64,000 nucleotides of DNA from an uncultured Verrucomicrobiae bacterium (GTDB lineage Bacteria > Verrucomicrobiota > Verrucomicrobiia > Chthoniobacterales > Chthoniobacteraceae). The translations under genes were made by a program, and so were the position numbers. The notes beneath the pieces are model-generated. The model made no database searches and was not told where the DNA came from. It worked only from the letters and a program-made list of their open reading frames with translations. Shown here one piece after another: positions 17,138 through 45,671 of this stretch. The DNA is taken from contig CAVYKI010000006.1 of the NCBI GenBank assembly GCA_963769025.1, forward strand, positions 576,001 to 640,000, written 5' to 3'. The first letter of the stretch is position 1, and each line of letters begins with the position of its first letter.

Positions 17138-18107
17138 TTCCACGCTCGAGGAAATCGCCGACGTCATCCGCGCGAACCAGCGCTTCGTCGTCATCTCCCA
17201 CATCCGCCCGGACGGCGACGCCCTCGGCTGCACGCTGGCGATGGGGCTCTGCCTGCGGCAGCTCGGCAAGGACGTGCAAATGTGGAACGACGACGGTTGC
17301 ATCGAGCGCTTCCACTTTCTGCCGGGCTCGAAATTCGTGCAGCAGCCGCCCGGCGAGCCGCAGGAGTTCGACGTCGCCATCATGCTCGACACCGCGGTGA
17401 AGGATCGCGGCGGACGCAGCATGCGCGCGGTGAAGAAGGCCGGTGCGTGGATCAACATCGATCACCACGTCTCGAATCCGCGCTACGGCGACCTGAACTT
17501 CATCGACGCCACGTCGCCGGCCACGGGCCAGATCCTGTTCGAGCTGTTCCGCACGGGAGAAATGCCCATCACCTACGAGATGGCCGACAATCTTTACGTC
17601 GCGATCAGCACCGATACCGGCAGCTTTCAGTATCCCAACACCACGGCGCGCACGTACGAGATCGGCGCGGAGCTTGTCCGCATCGGCGTGAAGGTCGGCG
17701 CACTTTCCCAGCAGCTCTACGAGAGCCATCCGCGGCGTCGCATCGAGCTGCTGAAGGCGATGCTCAACGTCATGCGCTTTTCGAGCGAGGGACGCGTCGC
17801 GAGCTTCGCGCTCTCGCTCGCCACTGCGCGCGAGGTCGGCTCGAACCCCGACGACACCGAGGGGCTCATCGATCACATCCGCTCGATCGAGGGCGTCATC
17901 GTCGCGGCGTTCTTCGAGGAATTGGAGGACGGGCTGGTCCGCGTGTCGTTGCGGTCGAAGGATCCGCGCGCCGATGTCTGCCAGATCGCCGTGGCATTTG
18001 GCGGCGGCGGACACACGCTCGCGGCCGGGCTGCGCATGCGCGGCACGCTCGCCGAGGTGCAGGAAAAATTACTCCAGGCCATTCATGACAAACTCCCGCG
18101 AAATTGA
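17127..18107 (+). CDS. nrnA: DHH/DHHA1 phosphoesterase (oligoribonuclease/pAp phosphatase)
   Basis: HIRPDGDALG, NIDHH, TDTGSF, SLRS, GGGGHTLAAG; rbfA-truB synteny. Confidence 0.92.
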   Translation: MPADSTLEEIADVIRANQRFVVISHIRPDGDALGCTLAMGLCLRQLGKDVQMWNDDGCIERFHFLPGSKFVQQPPGEPQEFDVAIMLDTAVKDRGGRSMRAVKKAGAWINIDHHVSNPRYGDLNFIDATSPATGQILFELFRTGEMPITYEMADNLYVAISTDTGSFQYPNTTARTYEIGAELVRIGVKVGALSQQLYESHPRRRIELLKAMLNVMRFSSEGRVASFALSLATAREVGSNPDDTEGLIDHIRSIEGVIVAAFFEELEDGLVRVSLRSKDPRADVCQIAVAFGGGGHTLAAGLRMRGTLAEVQEKLLQAIHDKLPRN

Positions 18108-18808
18108 CGGTGTGCTGCTGGTGGACAAAGCCGGCGGGATGACTTCCCACGACATCGTCGCCATTGCCCGCCGCACGCTCGGCACGAAAAAGATCGGCCA
18201 TTGCGGCACGCTCGATCCGCTCGCCACCGGCCTGCTCATCCTCACGCTCGGGCGCGGGACGAAAATCCAGGACCTGCTCATGGCCGAGGACAAGGAATAC
18301 GTCGGCACGCTGAAGCTCGGCGAGAACACCGACAGCCAGGATGCCGACGGCCAGATCACCGAGACGCGCCCGGTGCCGGAGCTTTCCCGCGAGCAGATCG
18401 ATGCCGCGTTCGCGAAGTTCAAGGGCGACTTTTACCAGATGCCGCCGATGGTCTCCGCGATCAAAAAGGACGGCGTGCCGCTCTACAAACTCGCGCGCCA
18501 GGGCAAGACCGTCGAACGCGAGCCGCGCTTCGTCCACGTCTATGCGCAGGAGCTGCTCGATGTGCGCCTGCCCGGAGATCGACTTCCGCGTCGTGTGCAG
18601 CAAGGGCTTCTACGTCCGCACCTACGCCTTCGACATCGGCCAGGACCTCGGCTGCGGCGCGCATCTGAAAGCGCTCCGCCGCACCAAGAGCGGCAAGTTT
18701 TCCGTGGACAACTCCGTCTCCGCCGACGTGCTCAAGAACGGCCCGCTGGATGCGGTGCTCGCGAAGGTGATGACGCTCCCGCAGGTCTCCATCCTCCGCG
18801 GGGCATAA
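18085..18808 (+). CDS. truB: tRNA pseudouridine(55) synthase; one frameshift near 18570
   Basis: [51 protein letters not shown] in the next frame. Confidence 0.93.
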
Positions 18809-18823: not shown

Positions 18824-19755
18824 GTGACCGTGAACGTCCTCCGCTCGATTCCCGATCTCGCGACGGTGCGCGGGCCGGTCGTCCTCGCGGCGGGCGTCTT
18901 CGACGGCTTCCACCTCGGCCATCGCGCCGTCATCGAGCGCGCCATCGCCGATGCCACCGCGGCGGGCGGCACCCCCGTCGTGCTCACCTTCGATCCGCAT
19001 CCCGCGACCATCCTCCGCCCGGGGAATGCGCCGCCGCTGCTCACCTCCACGCGGCACAAGGTGCGGCTCATCGGCGAGGCCGGCGTGCGGCACATGCTCG
19101 TGCTGCCATTCACGCCCGACTTCGCAGCCAAGGCGCCGGAGGCCTTCATCGCGGAACTCGCCGCAGCCTGTTCGCCGCTGCGCGAGATCTGTGTCGGCGA
19201 GGACTGGGCATTTGGAAAGGAACGCGCGGGGAATCTCGCGCTGCTCGCATCGCTCGGCGCGAGCCTCGGCTTCACCGCCACCGGCATCCCGGCGGTGACG
19301 GTCGATGGCCGCGCCGTCAGCAGCACCGTCATCCGCGCCGCCGTGGAGAGCGGCGCGCTCGACGTCGCCGCGCGGTTGCTCGGCCGCGACTTCAGCGTGT
19401 TCGGCACCGTCATCGAGGGACGCAAGCTCGGCCGCACGCTCGGCTTTCCCACCGCGAACGTCCGCCCCGAGAGCGAGCAGCTCCCGCCGAACGGCGTCTA
19501 TGCCGTCCGCGTCGCGCTTGACGGGAGCCGGCGCGAGGGCATCGCGAATGTCGGCGTGCGCCCCACGGTCGCCGGGGAAAATGCACAACGCCTCGTGGAG
19601 GTGCACCTCTTCGACTTCGCCGGCGAACTCTACGGCCGCGACCTCGACGTCTCCTTCCTCCGCTTCATCCGCCCCGAACAAAAGTTCCCGGCCTCGAAGC
19701 CCTGCGCGCCCAGATCGCCAGCGACGTCGCTGCCGTGCGGGGCGACCGCGGGTGA
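18824..19755 (+). CDS. ribF: Bifunctional riboflavin kinase/FAD synthetase; frameshift near 19690
   Basis: GVFDGFHLGH, VSSTVIR, GRTLGFPTAN, GVYAV, GVRPT, EVHLFDF, IRPEQKF; true tail GLEALRAQIASDV ends at TGA 19753-55. Confidence 0.95.
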
Positions 19756-19859
19756 GGAAGCGGCGTACATTTCAGGTTGACGATCATTCGATCCGGAGTC
19801 TTCCTCCCCGCGCGATGAATGTGGCCCCCCTAATGATGCCTTCTGCTGCGGTCGGACGC

Positions 19860-19914
19860 GAGCGTCGGAGCGTCGGAGCGTCGGAGCGTCGGAGCGTCGG
19901 AGCGTCGGAGCGTC
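19860..19914. repeat. Perfect microsatellite (GAGCGTCG) x ~6.9
   Basis: Direct inspection: six full units plus 7 nt. Confidence 0.95.
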
Positions 19915-19988
19915 TAGTACAGGCGGGGTCTGGCGTTTCGGCAAATGCGAGGCTGAAAACTTTGCCCGGTCGGCGTGTGCGGGCGCAT

Positions 19989-20324
19989 CCGTGCAAGGTG
20001 CAGGGGGCGGGTGCCAGTGTGGCAGGCGGCTTTTGCACGGTGCAAATGAAGGGTGCCAGTGGCAGTCGGGCCATGCAGCCATGCACAGTGATGTCTGCCT
20101 GCCTGTCCGCGGTTTCGTGCAGGCTGCACGGGGCGCGGCGGAGTGTCCCACGGGGTGCGTTCGCGGTGCATGGGGCAGGCCGGAGTCTGGCAAGGGCTTC
20201 GAGCATGATGCACGGGGCGGCTGCCACACGCCGGGCCGGTTCGTGCGCGGTGCAAATGCGGACTGCCAGCGTGGCAGACGGCCCGTGCACGGTGCAGGAG
20301 GCGTGTGCCAGCAGGGAAACCGGC
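19989..20324. repeat. Degenerate tandem array of 8 x 42 nt with alternating dyads every 21 bp
   Basis: TGCA at 19999, 20041, 20082, 20125, 20167, 20209, 20251, 20293; alternating TGCA-nGn-TGCA and TGCCA-nnn-TGGCA palindromes. Confidence 0.85.
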
Positions 20325-20352
20325 TCATTTTCAGCCCTTTACACATCCGAGC

Positions 20353-21358
20353 ATGAAAACCGCCTATTGGGATTCCGGCCTCAAATGGGATGACCCGAAC
20401 CTCCGCTGGGGCGACCCCGCGTACCTGCTCGAGCCGGGCGATCCCGGCTTCGTGAATGACCCGAATTCCGCTTCCTACGAACCACCAAAGACCAAGACCA
20501 AAAAACGCAAGTATATGGCATCCAACCCCACTCCAGACGCCATCGGCGAACTCATCGCTTCCGGCGAAGACCTCTGCGACGGCCTGAACCAGCGGCATCT
20601 CGCGGAAAATTGCCCCGTTTTCGCCTCCGCGCCTCGGGCCGCGCCTGAAATGCCTCAGCAATGCGAAGGGCTTCATCGCCCGCGCCATCAAGGTGCTCTC
20701 CATCGCGCTCGGCAATGCATGGAGCGACGCGTGGAGCGCGACCGGCCTGCCGGACAATACCGTGGGCGTCCCGCGCACGCAGGACGTGCGCTTTGCCGCC
20801 CTAGGCGGGCTGAACGCATATTTCACTGCGAACCCGGCAAAGGAAAACGCCCCGCTGAACGTCACCGCCGCCATCGTCGGGACGCTCTATCAGGCGCTCT
20901 CCGACGCCCGCACCGCCGTGGGCAATGCGCTCACGCTCACCAAGAACAAGGTCATGGCCCGCGACGCTGCGAAAGTCACCTTCCGCGACCGCTATCGCGC
21001 CACCATCGGCGAACTCGAACAGCTCCTCTCCGACGACGACGCGAAGTGGTATGACTTCGGCCTGAGCCGCCCGAGCGACCCCGCGCAGCCCGGCCAGCCC
21101 TCCAATGTCCACGCCACCCCGCTCGGCGCAGGCCGCGTGCTCGTGCAGATCGACGGCGCACGGCGGGCGAATTCATTCAACTACTACAAAAAGGTCACCG
21201 GCACCGACGCGAAGCCCGTGAAGGTGATCAATACCGAAGGCACGCAGCACACCATCGAGGGCCTGCCCGCCGGCGCGACGGTGGAAATCACCGTCACCGG
21301 CGTGAACGACGCCGGCGAAGGGCAGGCGAGCGACCCGGTGAGCGTGGTGGTGACATAA
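20353..21358 (+). CDS. Signal-less protein: Trp-rich N-terminal peptide, helical domain, C-terminal fibronectin type III-like domain; interrupted at ~20594-20655
   Basis: MKTAYWDSGLKWDDPNLRWGD..MASNPTP..DGLNQ, then in another frame SNAKGFIARA..WYDFGLSRP..PGQPSNVHA..TIEGLPAGATVEITVTGVNDAGEG (Fn3 signature); alternative start 20515. Confidence 0.75.
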
Positions 21359-21413
21359 GAGTGAAAGTTCCCGCGCACCGCCCGTCATTCATTCAACCCA
21401 TCCCATCCAAACC

Positions 21414-22547
21414 ATGAACACTCCGCGCACACTCATTCTCGCGCTCTTCGCCACCTGCATCGCGGGCGCGCAGGAGAATCCCGCCCCAGCTCCCCCAGCT
21501 ACGGATGCGCCGGCGACACCGGCGCAGACGGAAATCCAAAAGTGGATCGCCACGACGGATGCGCAGTGGCAGGCGGCATATAAGCGAGAGGTCAGCGACG
21601 TGCATGAGGCGGACGTCAGAAAGTTGATGCTCCAGTTTCTTACCTCGATCGAGGCGGCCATTACCAAAGCGAGCGGTGCCGGGGATCTGGATGGCTCGGT
21701 GGCGCTTCGCAACGAGCAGAAGCGCTTTGGCGACACGAACGTATTCCTTGAACAGGACGATCCCGGCGATCATGCCTCCGTGAAGCAACTCCGGGCGGCG
21801 GCTCGCATACAAAAGGCGAAGCTTGAAAAGGACAGCACCGCCCGCACCAAGACGCTGCACGCCAAATACGATCAGCTCCTCGCGCAGGCGCAGGCACAGC
21901 TCACGCAGCGCCAGCGCTTCGACGAAGCGCTGCTGGTGAAAGCCAAGCGGGATGAAGTCGCAGCGACCTGGCTGCCGTCCGTGCCTGCCGCTGCGCCTGC
22001 TGAAGGTCCTGAAAAGCCGGCGGCTCCCATCGCGACCCCAAACTCACCGGCGGCGCCTGCCGCCGCAGGGACGGGCACGAATCTTTTCACTAACGGCAAC
22101 TTTGAGCAAGGCACTGACGGCTGGACCTTGAGTGCTCACCGAAAGAAAGGACAGATGGCTGTGGACGCGAAGGAACTCCATAAAGGGAAGCCAAGTCTGC
22201 GAGTGGAAAATGTCGAAGCCGACGACACGCAGGTGACACAGAAGGTGAGCGTCAAACCGAACACACGTTACCGGCTTGCCGGCTACATTAAGACAAAAGA
22301 CGTGGAGACGGAGAAGCGCGGCGGCAAGGATGGAGCAACGCTGGCGGTCACCGGCGGATTCGCCAAGACACCACCGGTGTTCAAAACCAAGACATGGACC
22401 CGAGTCGACATGACCTATGTCACTGGAGCCAAACAAACCGAGATCGCTGTGGGACCGCGTCTCGGCCATCATAGCGCGGTGGTTTTGGGAACGGCGTGGT
22501 TTGCAGAATTGACGCTCACGGAACTTGGCCGCAACGCCAAACAATAG
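21414..22547 (+). CDS. Secreted protein: coiled-coil region plus C-terminal CBM4/9-like beta-sandwich
   Basis: Signal peptide; NLFTNGNFEQGTDGW..QKVSVKPNTRYRLAGYIKT..GTAWFAELTL. Confidence 0.8.
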   Translation: MNTPRTLILALFATCIAGAQENPAPAPPATDAPATPAQTEIQKWIATTDAQWQAAYKREVSDVHEADVRKLMLQFLTSIEAAITKASGAGDLDGSVALRNEQKRFGDTNVFLEQDDPGDHASVKQLRAAARIQKAKLEKDSTARTKTLHAKYDQLLAQAQAQLTQRQRFDEALLVKAKRDEVAATWLPSVPAAAPAEGPEKPAAPIATPNSPAAPAAAGTGTNLFTNGNFEQGTDGWTLSAHRKKGQMAVDAKELHKGKPSLRVENVEADDTQVTQKVSVKPNTRYRLAGYIKTKDVETEKRGGKDGATLAVTGGFAKTPPVFKTKTWTRVDMTYVTGAKQTEIAVGPRLGHHSAVVLGTAWFAELTLTELGRNAKQ

Positions 22548-22555
22548 CCCGGTAA

Positions 22556-22650
22556 GCGTGCGGTCAGTGGATGGCTGGGTCGCGGCGCATTTGTTCAAGC
22601 AGGATGGCTACGACATCATCGGAGTGACGACGAAGGTGTGGCCTGAGTCT
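22556..22650 (+). pseudogene. Decayed N-terminal fragment resembling MnmA
   Basis: SVDGWVAAHLFKQDGYDIIGVTTKVWP versus the MnmA SGGVDSSVAAxLLKxQGYDVIGVTM pattern; no start codon and no continuation. Confidence 0.55.
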
Positions 22651-22692
22651 CGGGCGCTTGCGGAGGGCGGGAGTTCTGGCATCTTCGCGGGC

Positions 22693-22922
22693 ATGAGCAT
22701 CACCGTCATCGTCGAGAACGACACCATCAAGCTGCCCGTGCATGTGCCGGACGGGACGCGGCTGGAGATTACGTTGCCCGGCGAAGGCGAAGCTGGAGCC
22801 ACGGGCAAGGCCGAAGAAGTCACGGCTGCACTGCTGGCAATGCAGCGCGCGGGTAAAGGGGCTGCCGTCGGACCTTGCGAGCGGAGCATGATCATTACCT
22901 GCACGGGCAGGCCAGGCGGTGA
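22693..22922 (+). CDS. Putative antitoxin (DUF104-like), frameshifted
   Basis: MSITVIVENDTIKLP..VPDGTRLEI and C-terminal LPSDLA..EHDHYLHG reconstructed across frames; directly upstream of the PIN gene. Confidence 0.65.
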
Positions 22923-22925
22923 GCA

Positions 22926-23335
22926 ATGGCCGTTTTTGCGGATACGTTCTTCTTCCTCGCAGCGCTCGAATCCGGGCGACGCCGCCCACGGGACGGCGAT
23001 CCGTTGGAGCCGGGAGCATGATCGCCATCCGGGTCGGACCGACGGCATGGGTGCTCACGGAAGTCGGAGACGCGGCTTGCCCGGCGACAATCGCGAGGCG
23101 CTTTCTGAGCCTGCTCGGCCTTGTCCGGAGTTCGACCGCTCTTCCGGTTTATCGGCGCGACACCGCAGGCGTTTTCGAGCGTGGCGTGGAGCTTTACCGA
23201 CGACGTCGCGACGACAAGGCGTGGTCGTTGACGGACTGCATTTCATTCGTCGTCATGGGCGATGAAGGGGCTGACCGAGGCGCTGACTGGCGACCGGCAC
23301 TTTGAGCAGGCGGCTTCAAGGCGCTGCTGATTTAG
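22926..23335 (+). CDS. PIN-domain (VapC-type) toxin with multiple frameshifts (errors or pseudogene)
   Basis: MAVFADTFFFLA..WVLTEVGDA..DKAWSLTDCISFVVM..ALTGDRHFEQAGF across frames. Confidence 0.8.
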
Positions 23336-45212: not shown

Positions 45213-45671
45213 ATGAAACACTTCACACTCACCCTCAGTCTCGCCGCGACGGCGTTGCTCACCCTCCCCACGCTCAGCCTCGCGGCTGACGAAGCCAAAC
45301 CCGAGCGCAAGCGCCCCGAAGGCGCCGGCGGCCCCGGCGGCCAGCGCCCCAATCCCGAGGAGCGCCTCAAGCGCATGACCGAAACGCTCGGCCTCACGCA
45401 GGAGCAGCAGGACAAGGTCAAGGCGATCTTCGAAGGCGGCCGCGAAGAAATGGCGAAGCTGCGCGAAGTGCCGGAAGGCGAGCGCCGGGAGAAATTCGGC
45501 GAGTTCATGAAAGGTCAAAACGAAAAGGTCCTCGCGGTCCTCACGCCCGAGCAGCAGGAGAAGTATAAGGCTGCCGCTGCGGAGCGTGCGAAGCAGGCCG
45601 GCGACCGTAAGCCGGGCGACCGCAAGCCGGGCGACCGCAAACCGGGCGACCGCAAGCCGGAAGCGAAATAA
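45213..45671 (+). CDS. Periplasmic Spy/CpxP-like (LTxxQ) protein with (GDRKP)4 tail
   Basis: Signal peptide; LGLTQEQQ and VLTPEQQ motifs. Confidence 0.8.
   Translation: MKHFTLTLSLAATALLTLPTLSLAADEAKPERKRPEGAGGPGGQRPNPEERLKRMTETLGLTQEQQDKVKAIFEGGREEMAKLREVPEGERREKFGEFMKGQNEKVLAVLTPEQQEKYKAAAAERAKQAGDRKPGDRKPGDRKPGDRKPEAK

Follow-up and report, generated by a model that had tools for sequence, protein, structure and literature searches.

A 41/42-nt repeat array and a helical-Fn3 gene form a conserved module in Verrucomicrobiota and Abditibacteriota, with a decayed copy in an uncultured Verrucomicrobiae bacterium

This study concerns an array of phased, partly palindromic repeats and the gene that directly follows it, in a 64,000-nucleotide (nt) stretch of DNA from an uncultured Verrucomicrobiae bacterium (assembly GCA_963769025.1, contig CAVYKI010000006.1, positions 576,001 to 640,000 of the forward strand), which is termed the window throughout and is numbered from its own first letter. 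Array and gene, the latter encoding a protein with a helical domain followed by an Fn3 domain, constitute a conserved module of which the window holds a decayed copy: the gene is immediately preceded by an array of 41- or 42-nt period in the window as well as in all 20 of the related loci that possess both its 5′ end and upstream DNA. The array may represent the transcribed front part of this module, being composed of stem-loop units that partner the encoded protein, a reading which we favour with more doubt than conviction and which is weighed below against its rivals.

The array comprises eight 42-nt units on the + strand (19989..20324), each consisting of dyad A (TGCA-nnn-TGCA), approximately 9 nt, dyad B (TGCCA-nnn-TGGCA) and approximately 9 nt more, and is separated from the start codon by a linker of 28 nt (20325..20352, +). 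The initial annotation of this DNA had proposed eight such units from position 19989, ending 28 nt before an ATG at 20353, and this is confirmed both by the layout and by the base identity at a lag of 42 nt. The latter amounts to 0.493 within the array (lags of 84 and 126 give 0.468 and 0.500), whereas 188 other 336-nt segments of the same 64 kb display a mean lag-42 identity of 0.306 with a standard deviation (SD) of 0.036 and a maximum of 0.422, thereby placing the array at z = 5.2. The eight-unit periodic array is real. Dyad centres had also been claimed to fall every 21 bp, and perfect dyads with 5-nt arms are indeed found at centre distances of 21, 20 and multiples of approximately 21 nt; however, the identity at lag 21 (0.324, z = 0.5) is at background, so that the 21-nt spacing is true of the dyad centres and not of the sequence. 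Tandem Repeats Finder (score 30) did not report the array because its units, which are approximately 50% identical to each other in the window, are too diverged.

Concerning the dyads themselves, the dyad A pattern GTGCANGGTGCA (allowing at most one mismatch) occurs eight times in the window, six of these within the array, as against an expectation of 1.11, and none of 100 shuffles reached eight occurrences. The exact dyad B pattern TGCCANNNTGGCA occurs twice in the window (expected 0.05), in units 1 and 7 and thus both times within the array. Of the eight B dyads in the window no more than three are well formed. Unit 2 carries a shorter form, TGCCA-G-TGGCA, unit 4 reads GGA-GTG-TCC, as the initial annotation had stated, and units 3–6 and 8 are degenerate copies. 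Unit 2 is 2 nt short and later units regain the register. The covariation previously reported for dyad A around its central G is present as three variants in the window, yet other loci often have T·G or G·G as their innermost pair, and there is consequently no robust covariation signal for this dyad.

A single scan of species-representative genomes yielded 35 loci, from which 20 loci together with the window make up a sample of 21 sources, nearly all of them from Verrucomicrobiota. These 20 loci include 16 of full length in addition to L026, L028, L001 and L014, the contigs of the last two beginning just upstream. The best upstream autocorrelation lag was 42, 84 or 83 in each of the 16 full-length loci. 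Among lags of 39 to 45 the maximum was at 42 in 18 sources and at 41 in L026 (38% identity) and L028 (31%, Abditibacteriaceae), which are the most distant of the homologs and both encode the short form of the protein. It had been expected that homologs would carry periodic flanking arrays, as is now seen in 20 of 20 usable loci, and the same linkage substantiates the notion that array and gene belong together. As neighbourhoods differ between loci, the two behave as one module.

The remaining loci of the scan are incomplete. L030 possesses an array that adjoins a remnant of the gene, while L011, L012, L022 and L025 start inside the gene and are not judgeable. Ten other partial matches (L018, L023, L024, L027, L029 and L031–L035) carry no array, and the six of these that were inspected are truncated remnants. 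In L018 (7779-8762) a leader resembling that of L015 is fused to approximately residue 111 of the gene; this locus is a deletion derivative in which the array and the 5′ third of the gene were lost together. When 23,460 segments of 252 nt (approximately 501 kb) were scanned for strong periodicity, lag-42 signals exceeding 5 SD were obtained in 13 sources, each time immediately before the gene or, in L030, before what remains of it. As a separate observation, seven of the 35 loci end their contig at the 5′ region of the gene or at the array (L011, L012, L022 and L025 in the gene; L001, L014 and L017 in or just before the array), as though this repeat tended to interrupt assemblies. More than one copy is harboured by several genomes, for instance MFD01213.bin.2.156 with three loci.

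Across lineages the unit sequences are unrelated while the period is constant, and the assertion that period and symmetry are better kept than sequence is therefore borne out among related loci. Array types, which were named by eye, roughly track a protein tree that is itself poorly resolved. Dyads A and B occur together in the window, L009, L001 and L030; L006 and L004 combine dyad A with a dyad of the CCCGGAGTCTTCCGG type; and L021 presents a perfect 17-bp dyad A every 42 nt. A Verrucomicrobiaceae group (L002, L003, L005, L007, L008, L010 and L020) carries dyad B alongside a non-palindromic element of the CGTCGTTG type, GAGTCT-centred dyads are found in L013, L015, L016, L017 and L019, and L026 and L028 possess hairpins with loops of 4–13 nt. 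The units of L028 form a 7-bp stem with a loop of 10–11 nt, and the loops of L017 and L026 measure 4–13 nt. In four of the five units of L028 (7740-7960) the loop sequence CUUCC is complementary to a GGAAG in the spacer, while the loop of the first unit itself carries GGAAG, and these units thus have, as judged from their sequence, the potential for pseudoknot or loop-loop pairing. A GTAG precedes the dyad in some units of L005, L008 and L019.

The arrays hold five to eight units. Nine leaders (those of the window and eight further loci) can be aligned unit by unit, and in all nine unit 2 bears the short-centred TGCCA-G-TGGCA while unit 6 has its own non-palindromic variant. The retention of such unit-specific variants in nine loci indicates that the array is old and that its units are individually conserved rather than homogenised by slippage. 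When the window is compared with L009, identity amounts to 83% in the dyads and to 65–67% in the segments that separate them. The leaders nevertheless outpace the gene in their divergence, as illustrated by L002 and L003, which differ at 58 positions over 380 nt of leader and at 6 over 240 nt of gene.

A further possibility, that the array is translated as a conserved repeat of 14 amino acids (aa), was addressed by a codon-phase test on five pairs of leaders, with the first 240 nt of the gene as positive control. Differences in the leaders were distributed over the three phases as 17/17/24, 20/24/24, 29/25/28, 33/37/31 and 32/39/38, and their indels measured 1–2 nt. In the gene, four pairs gave 1/1/4, 4/4/13, 15/7/30 and 14/8/30 with indels of 3 or 6 nt, while the comparison of the window with L009 displayed a weaker phase pattern (16/17/24). 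With leader substitutions flat over the phases and indels of 1–2 nt, a translated 14-aa repeat was rejected, in keeping with the initial annotation, which had named such a repeat as an alternative to its own proposal.

The gene downstream of the array is split in the window. Its 5′ part (20353..20592, +; 80 codons in frame 1, MKTAYWDSGLKWDDPNLRWGDP...DGLNQ) encodes the N-terminal extension, a basic linker and the beginning of the helical domain, as established by homolog alignment, while its 3′ part (20633..21358, +; 241 codons in frame 2) supplies the remainder of the helical domain together with the Fn3 domain (residues 155–238 of this piece). Between them lies a frame-shifting lesion (20593..20660, +) that exhibits, relative to L009, L004 and L006, three gaps of 14, 8 and 58 nt (80 nt in total) in addition to a diverged stretch. 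The earlier view of a product encoded at 20353–21358 and in need of repair makes too little of this damage; the gene copy is broken and probably dead in this genome. Decay of gene copies is frequent: besides the window copy, L018, L023, L024, L027, L029 and L034 are remnants, and a relative that is 96% identical (P0005) also starts in the wrong frame. In the same record truB is split over two frames (window 18085-18808; TruB_N at 18085-18684 and TruB_C_2 at 18341-18805) by a frameshift or a sequencing indel, suggesting that simple sequencing indels do occur here; the three gaps in the helical-Fn3 gene, 80 nt in total, are not of that type.

With the 3′ piece as query, 163 homologs (90% clusters, E <= 0.001) were retrieved, and a search with the helical domain gave 986 clusters at 50% identity, the majority of them approximately 306 aa in length and starting at a MASNP motif. 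The group to which the window protein belongs has an additional N-terminal part of approximately 55 aa and a basic linker; the family spans some 306–365 aa. The 3′ piece of the window matches Pfam PF00041 with E = 9.8e-5 and 22.9 bits, which is under the 25-bit cut-off, while the family member P0001 scores 26.8 bits against the same cut-off. For the pieces from the window, and for 19 of the 25 family members searched, fn3 is the sole Pfam match. AlphaFold predicts the structure of the closest full-length relative with confidence, at a pLDDT of 87.9 overall and of 91.8 for the helical domain. A small N-terminal part and a basic segment that is disordered are followed in the model by a bundle that includes two helices of approximately 53–63 residues and by the Fn3 domain, and the model starts without any helix resembling a signal peptide, in agreement with the description of the protein as signal-less and helical-Fn3. 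The Fn3 fold at the C-terminus is attested by both Pfam and Foldseek, the latter giving a TM score of 0.8 to known Fn3 domains.

No such assignment was obtained for the remainder of the protein. Foldseek searches of the Protein Data Bank (PDB) and of viral models returned the Fn3 domain only, and the helical domain alone, when compared with PDB folds, gave a best E value of 0.17 (the N-terminal domain of RipA), none of the 500 counted matches having E <= 0.001. A profile search of PDB sequences yielded Fn3 chains and noise, NCBIfam returned nothing, ESM Atlas no named cluster and PHROGs weak Fn3 matches only, and PADLOC found no match for six family proteins or for the gene product encoded next downstream in the window. 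Rfam, at its gathering threshold, reported a single tRNA in the window and nothing in nine related loci, and at E <= 10 one chance-level match in 19600–20600. No described element of this kind was encountered in the literature, as far as titles and listings show. Nothing described so far matches either the array or the helical domain.

The DNA that precedes the array has features of its own. In the window a perfect microsatellite, (GAGCGTCG) x 6.9 (19860..19914; score 110, 100% matches, Tandem Repeats Finder), is followed by a pre-array segment (19915..19988, +) that is conserved with relatives in the leader alignment. Among perfect microsatellites with units of 4–9 nt and at least four copies, 8 of the 11 present in 501,342 nt are located just 5′ of arrays, seven of them 381–533 nt upstream of the family ATG, while the eighth opens the contig of L001 just 5′ of its array. 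Apart from that of the window they are found at L001 1-88, L006 7538-7565, L007 7518-7566, L009 3971-4026, L010 7468-7502, L013 821-864 and L016 7525-7620. L009 has the same repeat unit as the window in the same relative place, whereas the other loci possess unrelated units of 4, 7 or 8 nt; the unit lengths (8, 8, 8, 7, 7, 7, 4 and 4 nt) include no multiple of three, and the sequences are unrelated. A microsatellite whose unit is not a multiple of three, when held at a fixed place, is a hallmark of phase variation as known from contingency loci.

An open reading frame (ORF) of 192 codons with an ATG start (19815..20393, +), set in frame +2 with respect to the gene, extends through the microsatellite and the entire array and terminates 41 nt into the gene; its product matches no Pfam family. 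Frame +2 is free of stops from -378 to -30 in 14 of 17 sources, including those of lower GC content, in which the other frames contain up to seven stops, and ATG-started ORFs of 163–210 codons that end at +41 to +143 are present in 11 of the 17. Stops in frame +2 occur in L009, L017 and L019. An ATG located 5′ of the microsatellite is in frame +2 in the window and L006 and out of frame in L007, L009, L010 and L013, where one repeat unit would correct it; L016 has no ATG in the 120 nt 5′ of its microsatellite.

These data raise the possibility that the leader acts as a phase-variable switch, in which slippage of the microsatellite toggles read-through of the leader by ribosomes and hence expression of the gene, the 42-nt (14-codon) period serving to keep the frame open in an ORF without amino-acid constraint. 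The enrichment of microsatellites of non-triplet unit just 5′ of arrays, the openness of frame +2, its ATG-started ORFs and the upstream ATGs that are in frame or one unit away would all accord with this proposal. We nevertheless regard it as distinctly unlikely, as no frame can be kept through arrays of 41-nt period such as those of L026 and L028, 10 of the 17 sources lack a microsatellite, L016 has no upstream ATG and three loci carry stops in the frame concerned. Moreover, GC-rich repeats with a 3n period stay open by chance, the openness observed here being borderline unusual by a rough estimate, and since one unit can reach any frame, being 'one unit away' constitutes no test.

Other observations on the leader are recorded here in their own right. 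The array is flanked by two copies of a 19-nt direct repeat (19942-19960 and 20342-20360) that are 79% identical, the second of which spans the start codon. L006 and L004 share a similar GAGCATGAAAAC motif approximately 120 nt upstream of the start, which opens an ORF of 13–15 codons. An isolated CCGGAGTCTTCC element is situated between ribF and the microsatellite (window 19793-19804); unit 5 of the window array resembles it, as does the second dyad in the units of L006 and L004. Sigma-54-like motifs were located directly 5′ of the microsatellite in L013 (one mismatch) and L016 (two mismatches), and this position would place the array inside the transcript; the same scan produced nine matches with at most two mismatches in 17 sources, which by rough estimate is about the number expected by chance. 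Sigma-54 promoters inside the units themselves were considered and rejected, as the TGGCA...TGCA spacing (GG-N12-GC) is two bases too long.

Several known systems combine short repeats with a gene. CRISPR-Cas is excluded, as the initial annotation had stated, given that units are approximately 50% identical rather than near-identical and that no Cas family is present among the flanking proteins scanned in the window and 12 loci. The likeness to TIGR arrays that it had loosely drawn is accurate for the window: these are described (PMC12045711) as two alternating repeats of 8–12 nt with 9-nt spacers in 5–15 units by the gene, and the window has repeats of 11 and 13 nt, segments of 9 nt and eight units beside a gene. 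TIGR repeats share end motifs, as do both window dyads (TG...CA), and their array sequence is poorly conserved (PMC12045711; bioRxiv 10.64898/2026.09.09.750476). However, the unit here measures 41–42 nt as against 36 nt in TIGR, the CCA box (box C) is absent and the window repeats end in GCA, and the segments are G-rich, similar between units and inherited, whereas TIGR spacers are unit-specific guides bordered by box D (UG) and box C (CCA). Other lineages of the present family possess one dyad only (the L002 group lacks dyad A) or a long-loop hairpin (L028 and L026). In line with the earlier statement that no Nop-domain protein is present, no Nop domain was detected by Pfam even at E <= 10, by PDB sequence search or by fold search with the helical domain, and TIGR-Tas membership was rejected on account of this absence and of the inherited nature of the 'spacers'.

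Type III loci (toxIN, cptIN and tenpIN) carry tandem repeats of 31–62 nt, in 1.9–5.6 units, directly upstream of a protein gene, and the sequence, length and number of their repeats differ between homologous loci, implying co-evolution with the protein (PMC3401426). The present module is similar in having a co-oriented tandem array directly upstream of one gene, with a period of 41–42 nt that falls within this range, and in the pseudoknot potential of L028. It differs in that its protein is a helical bundle with Fn3 of 306–365 aa, as opposed to a ToxN-type endoribonuclease of approximately 150–170 aa, in its five to eight units of approximately 50% identity in many arrays, and in the terminator, since the palindromic terminator between repeats and gene is absent in the window and only weak AU-rich hairpins can be seen by eye in some loci. 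Identity with a ToxN, CptN or TenpN toxin was dismissed on the basis of that fold and of the absence of PADLOC or Pfam matches.

It is accordingly very unlikely that the array is TIGR-like or type III-like in the strict sense, that is to say, that it gives rise to unit-length RNAs which guide the protein to targets or neutralise a toxin. This would be consistent with the dual-repeat architecture of the window and the position and size of the tandem repeats, both matching the published descriptions (PMC12045711; PMC3401426), as well as with the pseudoknot potential of L028 and the frequent decay of the gene. The family possesses neither a Nop domain nor a ToxN-, CptN- or TenpN-like protein, however, and the 'spacers', at 65–67% identity between the window and L009, are inherited and not replaced. 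In addition, a comparison with 50,697 phage records gave no match to the array, no terminator separates array from gene in the window, and the number of units exceeds the 1.9–5.6 of type III loci. A defence-island context was likewise rejected, clear restriction-modification genes being present near only 2 of 12 loci.

REP and BIME elements are short GC-rich palindromes, tagged with GTAG or CGTC and sometimes in tandem, and are known in Verrucomicrobia (PMC3733652). The tandem palindromes of the array and the GTAG that precedes some dyads recall these elements, while the fixed period, the direct orientation and the absence of dispersal in the 64 kb of the window and the approximately 501 kb scanned set it apart. 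No RAYT-type transposase was detected among 53 neighbouring proteins, and REP/BIME was discarded as an explanation because the periodic signal is confined, within these approximately 501 kb, to the DNA upstream of this gene family.

Arrays of protein-binding sites offer another comparison. The sopC locus of plasmid F consists of 43-bp direct repeats, or approximately four helical turns, which contain inverted repeats and lie by the gene of the binding protein. Like such partition, iteron or operator arrays, the present array is made up of direct repeats of approximately four turns, each with an inverted repeat, but it is accompanied by no partition ATPase or known DNA-binding protein, occurs in a variable chromosomal context, abuts the start codon and is composed of old, diverged units with unit-specific variants. 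A likeness to autoregulatory leaders also exists, in that a structured leader bound by its own product would explain the conservation of the pair across phyla. We know of no described leader composed of five to eight phased repeats, nor of any that combines these with a microsatellite.

Based on these findings, we lean towards a model in which the module is self-contained and vertically inherited and would combine the helical-Fn3 gene with a promoter, with five to eight stem-loop units 41–42 nt in length and, in many instances, with a hypermutable microsatellite, the array being its transcribed front part. The units would act as RNA, each offering a short hairpin at dyad B and, where dyad A is present, a second one there, and these hairpins may be bound by a sequence-specific protein, most likely the product of the downstream gene in the form of a symmetric oligomer. 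The array could then feed back on expression of the protein or assemble with it into a ribonucleoprotein, and a fixed protein footprint would hold the unit length constant while the sequence co-evolves, as occurs in type III loci, TIGR arrays and ribosomal-protein leaders. Transcription through the array, its action at the RNA level and its binding by the encoded protein are all inferred, and that the array consists of transcribed stem-loop units partnering the encoded protein is a tentative proposition, short of being probable, even though we prefer it.

Support for pairing comes from the B dyads. Across six of these in nine loci, 226 cells are Watson-Crick pairs, 21 are G·T, 6 are A·C and 56 are other combinations, while C/T and A/G differences number 70 and 55 over the leaders as a whole, and the proposed pairs are formed in 81.3% of cases as compared to 75.1% when shuffled (a value reached by 0 of 500 shuffles) and 25–56% when the partners are slid. 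The short form of unit 2 retains a hairpin of 5 bp with a 3-nt loop while it shifts the spacing of the half-sites by 2 bp. The hairpins with long loops, as read from their sequences, fit RNA better than they fit operators for dimers, and the close approach of the array to the start codon (28 nt in the window) also counts in favour of RNA. RNA was placed ahead of DNA because it accommodates all lineages and because, by analogy, known array-plus-gene systems of conserved unit length work as RNA.

Other findings weigh against this preference. Dyad arms are near-invariant within arrays while the centres vary, with TGCA/TGCA in six of six units of L021 and seven of seven of L006 and L004, and such invariance has, at the sequence level, the pattern of operator half-sites rather than that of covarying RNA stems. 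G·T exceeds A·C within arrays by only 24 to 14, and the excess at the dyad sites reads as mostly C-to-T and could thus be partly mutational. A search for covarying positions at the level of units disclosed nothing beyond dyad B. No conserved helix pairs the pre-array with the post-array regions in 16 sources (z between -2.1 and +1.3), and a helix masking the start codon was rejected on the same figures, the perfect 9-nt pairing of the window (19951-19959 with 20328-20336) not being conserved. A helix of alignment columns 158-168 and 200-210 was also set aside: both sides change in seven of nine pairs, which in essence reflects a single difference separating two sets of loci. Both strands fold similarly relative to shuffles (z = -3.0 and -3.9) and the leader has G in excess of C in 12 of 19 sources only, so neither measure is informative. 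Searches of 19600–21500 revealed neither a sigma-70-type promoter nor a + strand terminator, sigma-54-like motifs stand at a consistent place in just 2 of 17 sources, and Pfam, PDB sequence and fold searches recognised no nucleic-acid-binding domain in the helical-Fn3 protein. A period of 41–42 bp corresponds to four turns of B-DNA and is natural at the DNA level, and the arrays were sampled in 21 sources from a family of 986 clusters at 50% identity.

Alternatively, the array may be a phased DNA operator platform, that is, a series of half-site pairs for a dimeric regulator, be it some other factor or the protein itself, repeated every four turns. Dimers bound on one face would then cooperatively repress or activate the gene or block polymerase arriving from upstream. 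To this end one may cite the period of 42 or 41 bp in 21 of 21 sources despite unrelated unit sequences, the compensation of small indels such that the register is kept (as after the short unit 2), the invariable TGCA-nnn-TGCA of L021, L006 and L004 together with perfect palindromes of 15–17 bp in L021 and L006, short A-runs once per unit in L016, L026 and L028, and the occurrence of the same dyad A sequence across lineages whose proteins are approximately 57–72% identical to the query. The short-centred B dyad of unit 2 in nine of nine loci, which moves the half-site spacing by 2 bp, is difficult to reconcile with such a platform, as are stems with loops of 10–13 nt in L028, L026 and L017 and the preponderance of G·T over A·C (21 versus 6) at the B dyads. 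Furthermore, no gene for a DNA-binding regulator travels with the array, an AraC-family gene being present in 1 of 12 loci scanned, and the sites would lie downstream of the transcription start if the sigma-54-like motifs of L013 and L016 are promoters. An operator platform is on balance unlikely, while remaining a rival that merits serious attention.

That the array is a functionless, slippage-prone satellite hitch-hiking with the gene, or a translated 14-aa repeat, seems scarcely credible. The low identity and degeneracy of several window units and the faster evolution of the leaders relative to the gene (58/380 nt as against 6/240 nt in L002 and L003) are what a satellite would exhibit, but the array has been kept in 21 of 21 sources and two phyla at a constant period, unit-specific variants are conserved across nine loci, and the dyads are better conserved than the spacers between the window and L009 (83% versus 65–67%), while the codon phases exclude translation under selection.

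Taking the preferred RNA reading further, the module could belong to a class that has so far gone unrecognised, pairing a repeat RNA with a helical-Fn3 protein, endowed with a microsatellite on/off switch, present in at least Verrucomicrobiota and Abditibacteriota, perhaps subject to cutting at unit length, and unrelated by descent to CRISPR, TIGR or type III systems while sharing their underlying principle; we consider this broader proposal possible though rather doubtful.

Regarding the surroundings of the module, the gene order in the window is nusA-infB-rbfA-DHH-truB-ribF, array, helical-Fn3 gene and the gene of a CBM_4_9 protein. The last of these (21414..22547, +) encodes a hydrophobic N-terminal leader, which to the eye resembles a signal peptide, and a CBM_4_9 domain (PF02018, E = 8.6e-11). 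Its N-terminal helical region is shared with the downstream genes of L006 (46% over 265 aa) and of L002 and L003 (33–35% over 156 aa), while five other downstream genes that were compared gave no match to it at E <= 1e-3; a related protein with a hydrophobic N-terminus is encoded next in 4 of 10 sources compared. Elsewhere the neighbours include PQQ-repeat, sucA/sucB, type II secretion F/G, IS110, WD40 and AraC-family genes, and they are mostly housekeeping genes aside from the restriction-modification genes mentioned above. In L006 (4468-12207) the module and its downstream gene are inserted between the genes for 2-oxoglutarate dehydrogenase E1 (sucA) and E2 (sucB). Two overlapping ORFs without a Pfam, NCBIfam or PADLOC match lie downstream of the CBM_4_9 gene (window 22525-23305), and a 15-nt tandem repeat (GGCGACCGCAAGCCG x 4.1, 93% matches, Tandem Repeats Finder) is located at 45593-45660 of the window.

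The coupling of array and gene described here holds in every testable relative, in two phyla, and concerns a family of approximately 1000 unannotated clusters at 50% identity, and is thus more general than the initial annotation, made from this one stretch, could know. For the annotation of the present genome, the window copy is to be regarded as a decayed remnant. Short structured repeat arrays that accompany one protein gene have repeatedly proved to be RNA-guided or RNA-regulated, as exemplified by CRISPR, TIGR and type III systems. If it is true that RNA of the array binds the protein, the module would represent a new ribonucleoprotein system; if the array acts as DNA, it would constitute a phased operator of unusual regularity and conserved four-turn spacing; and if the microsatellite and the open frame matter, these bacteria would possess a new kind of phase-variable leader.

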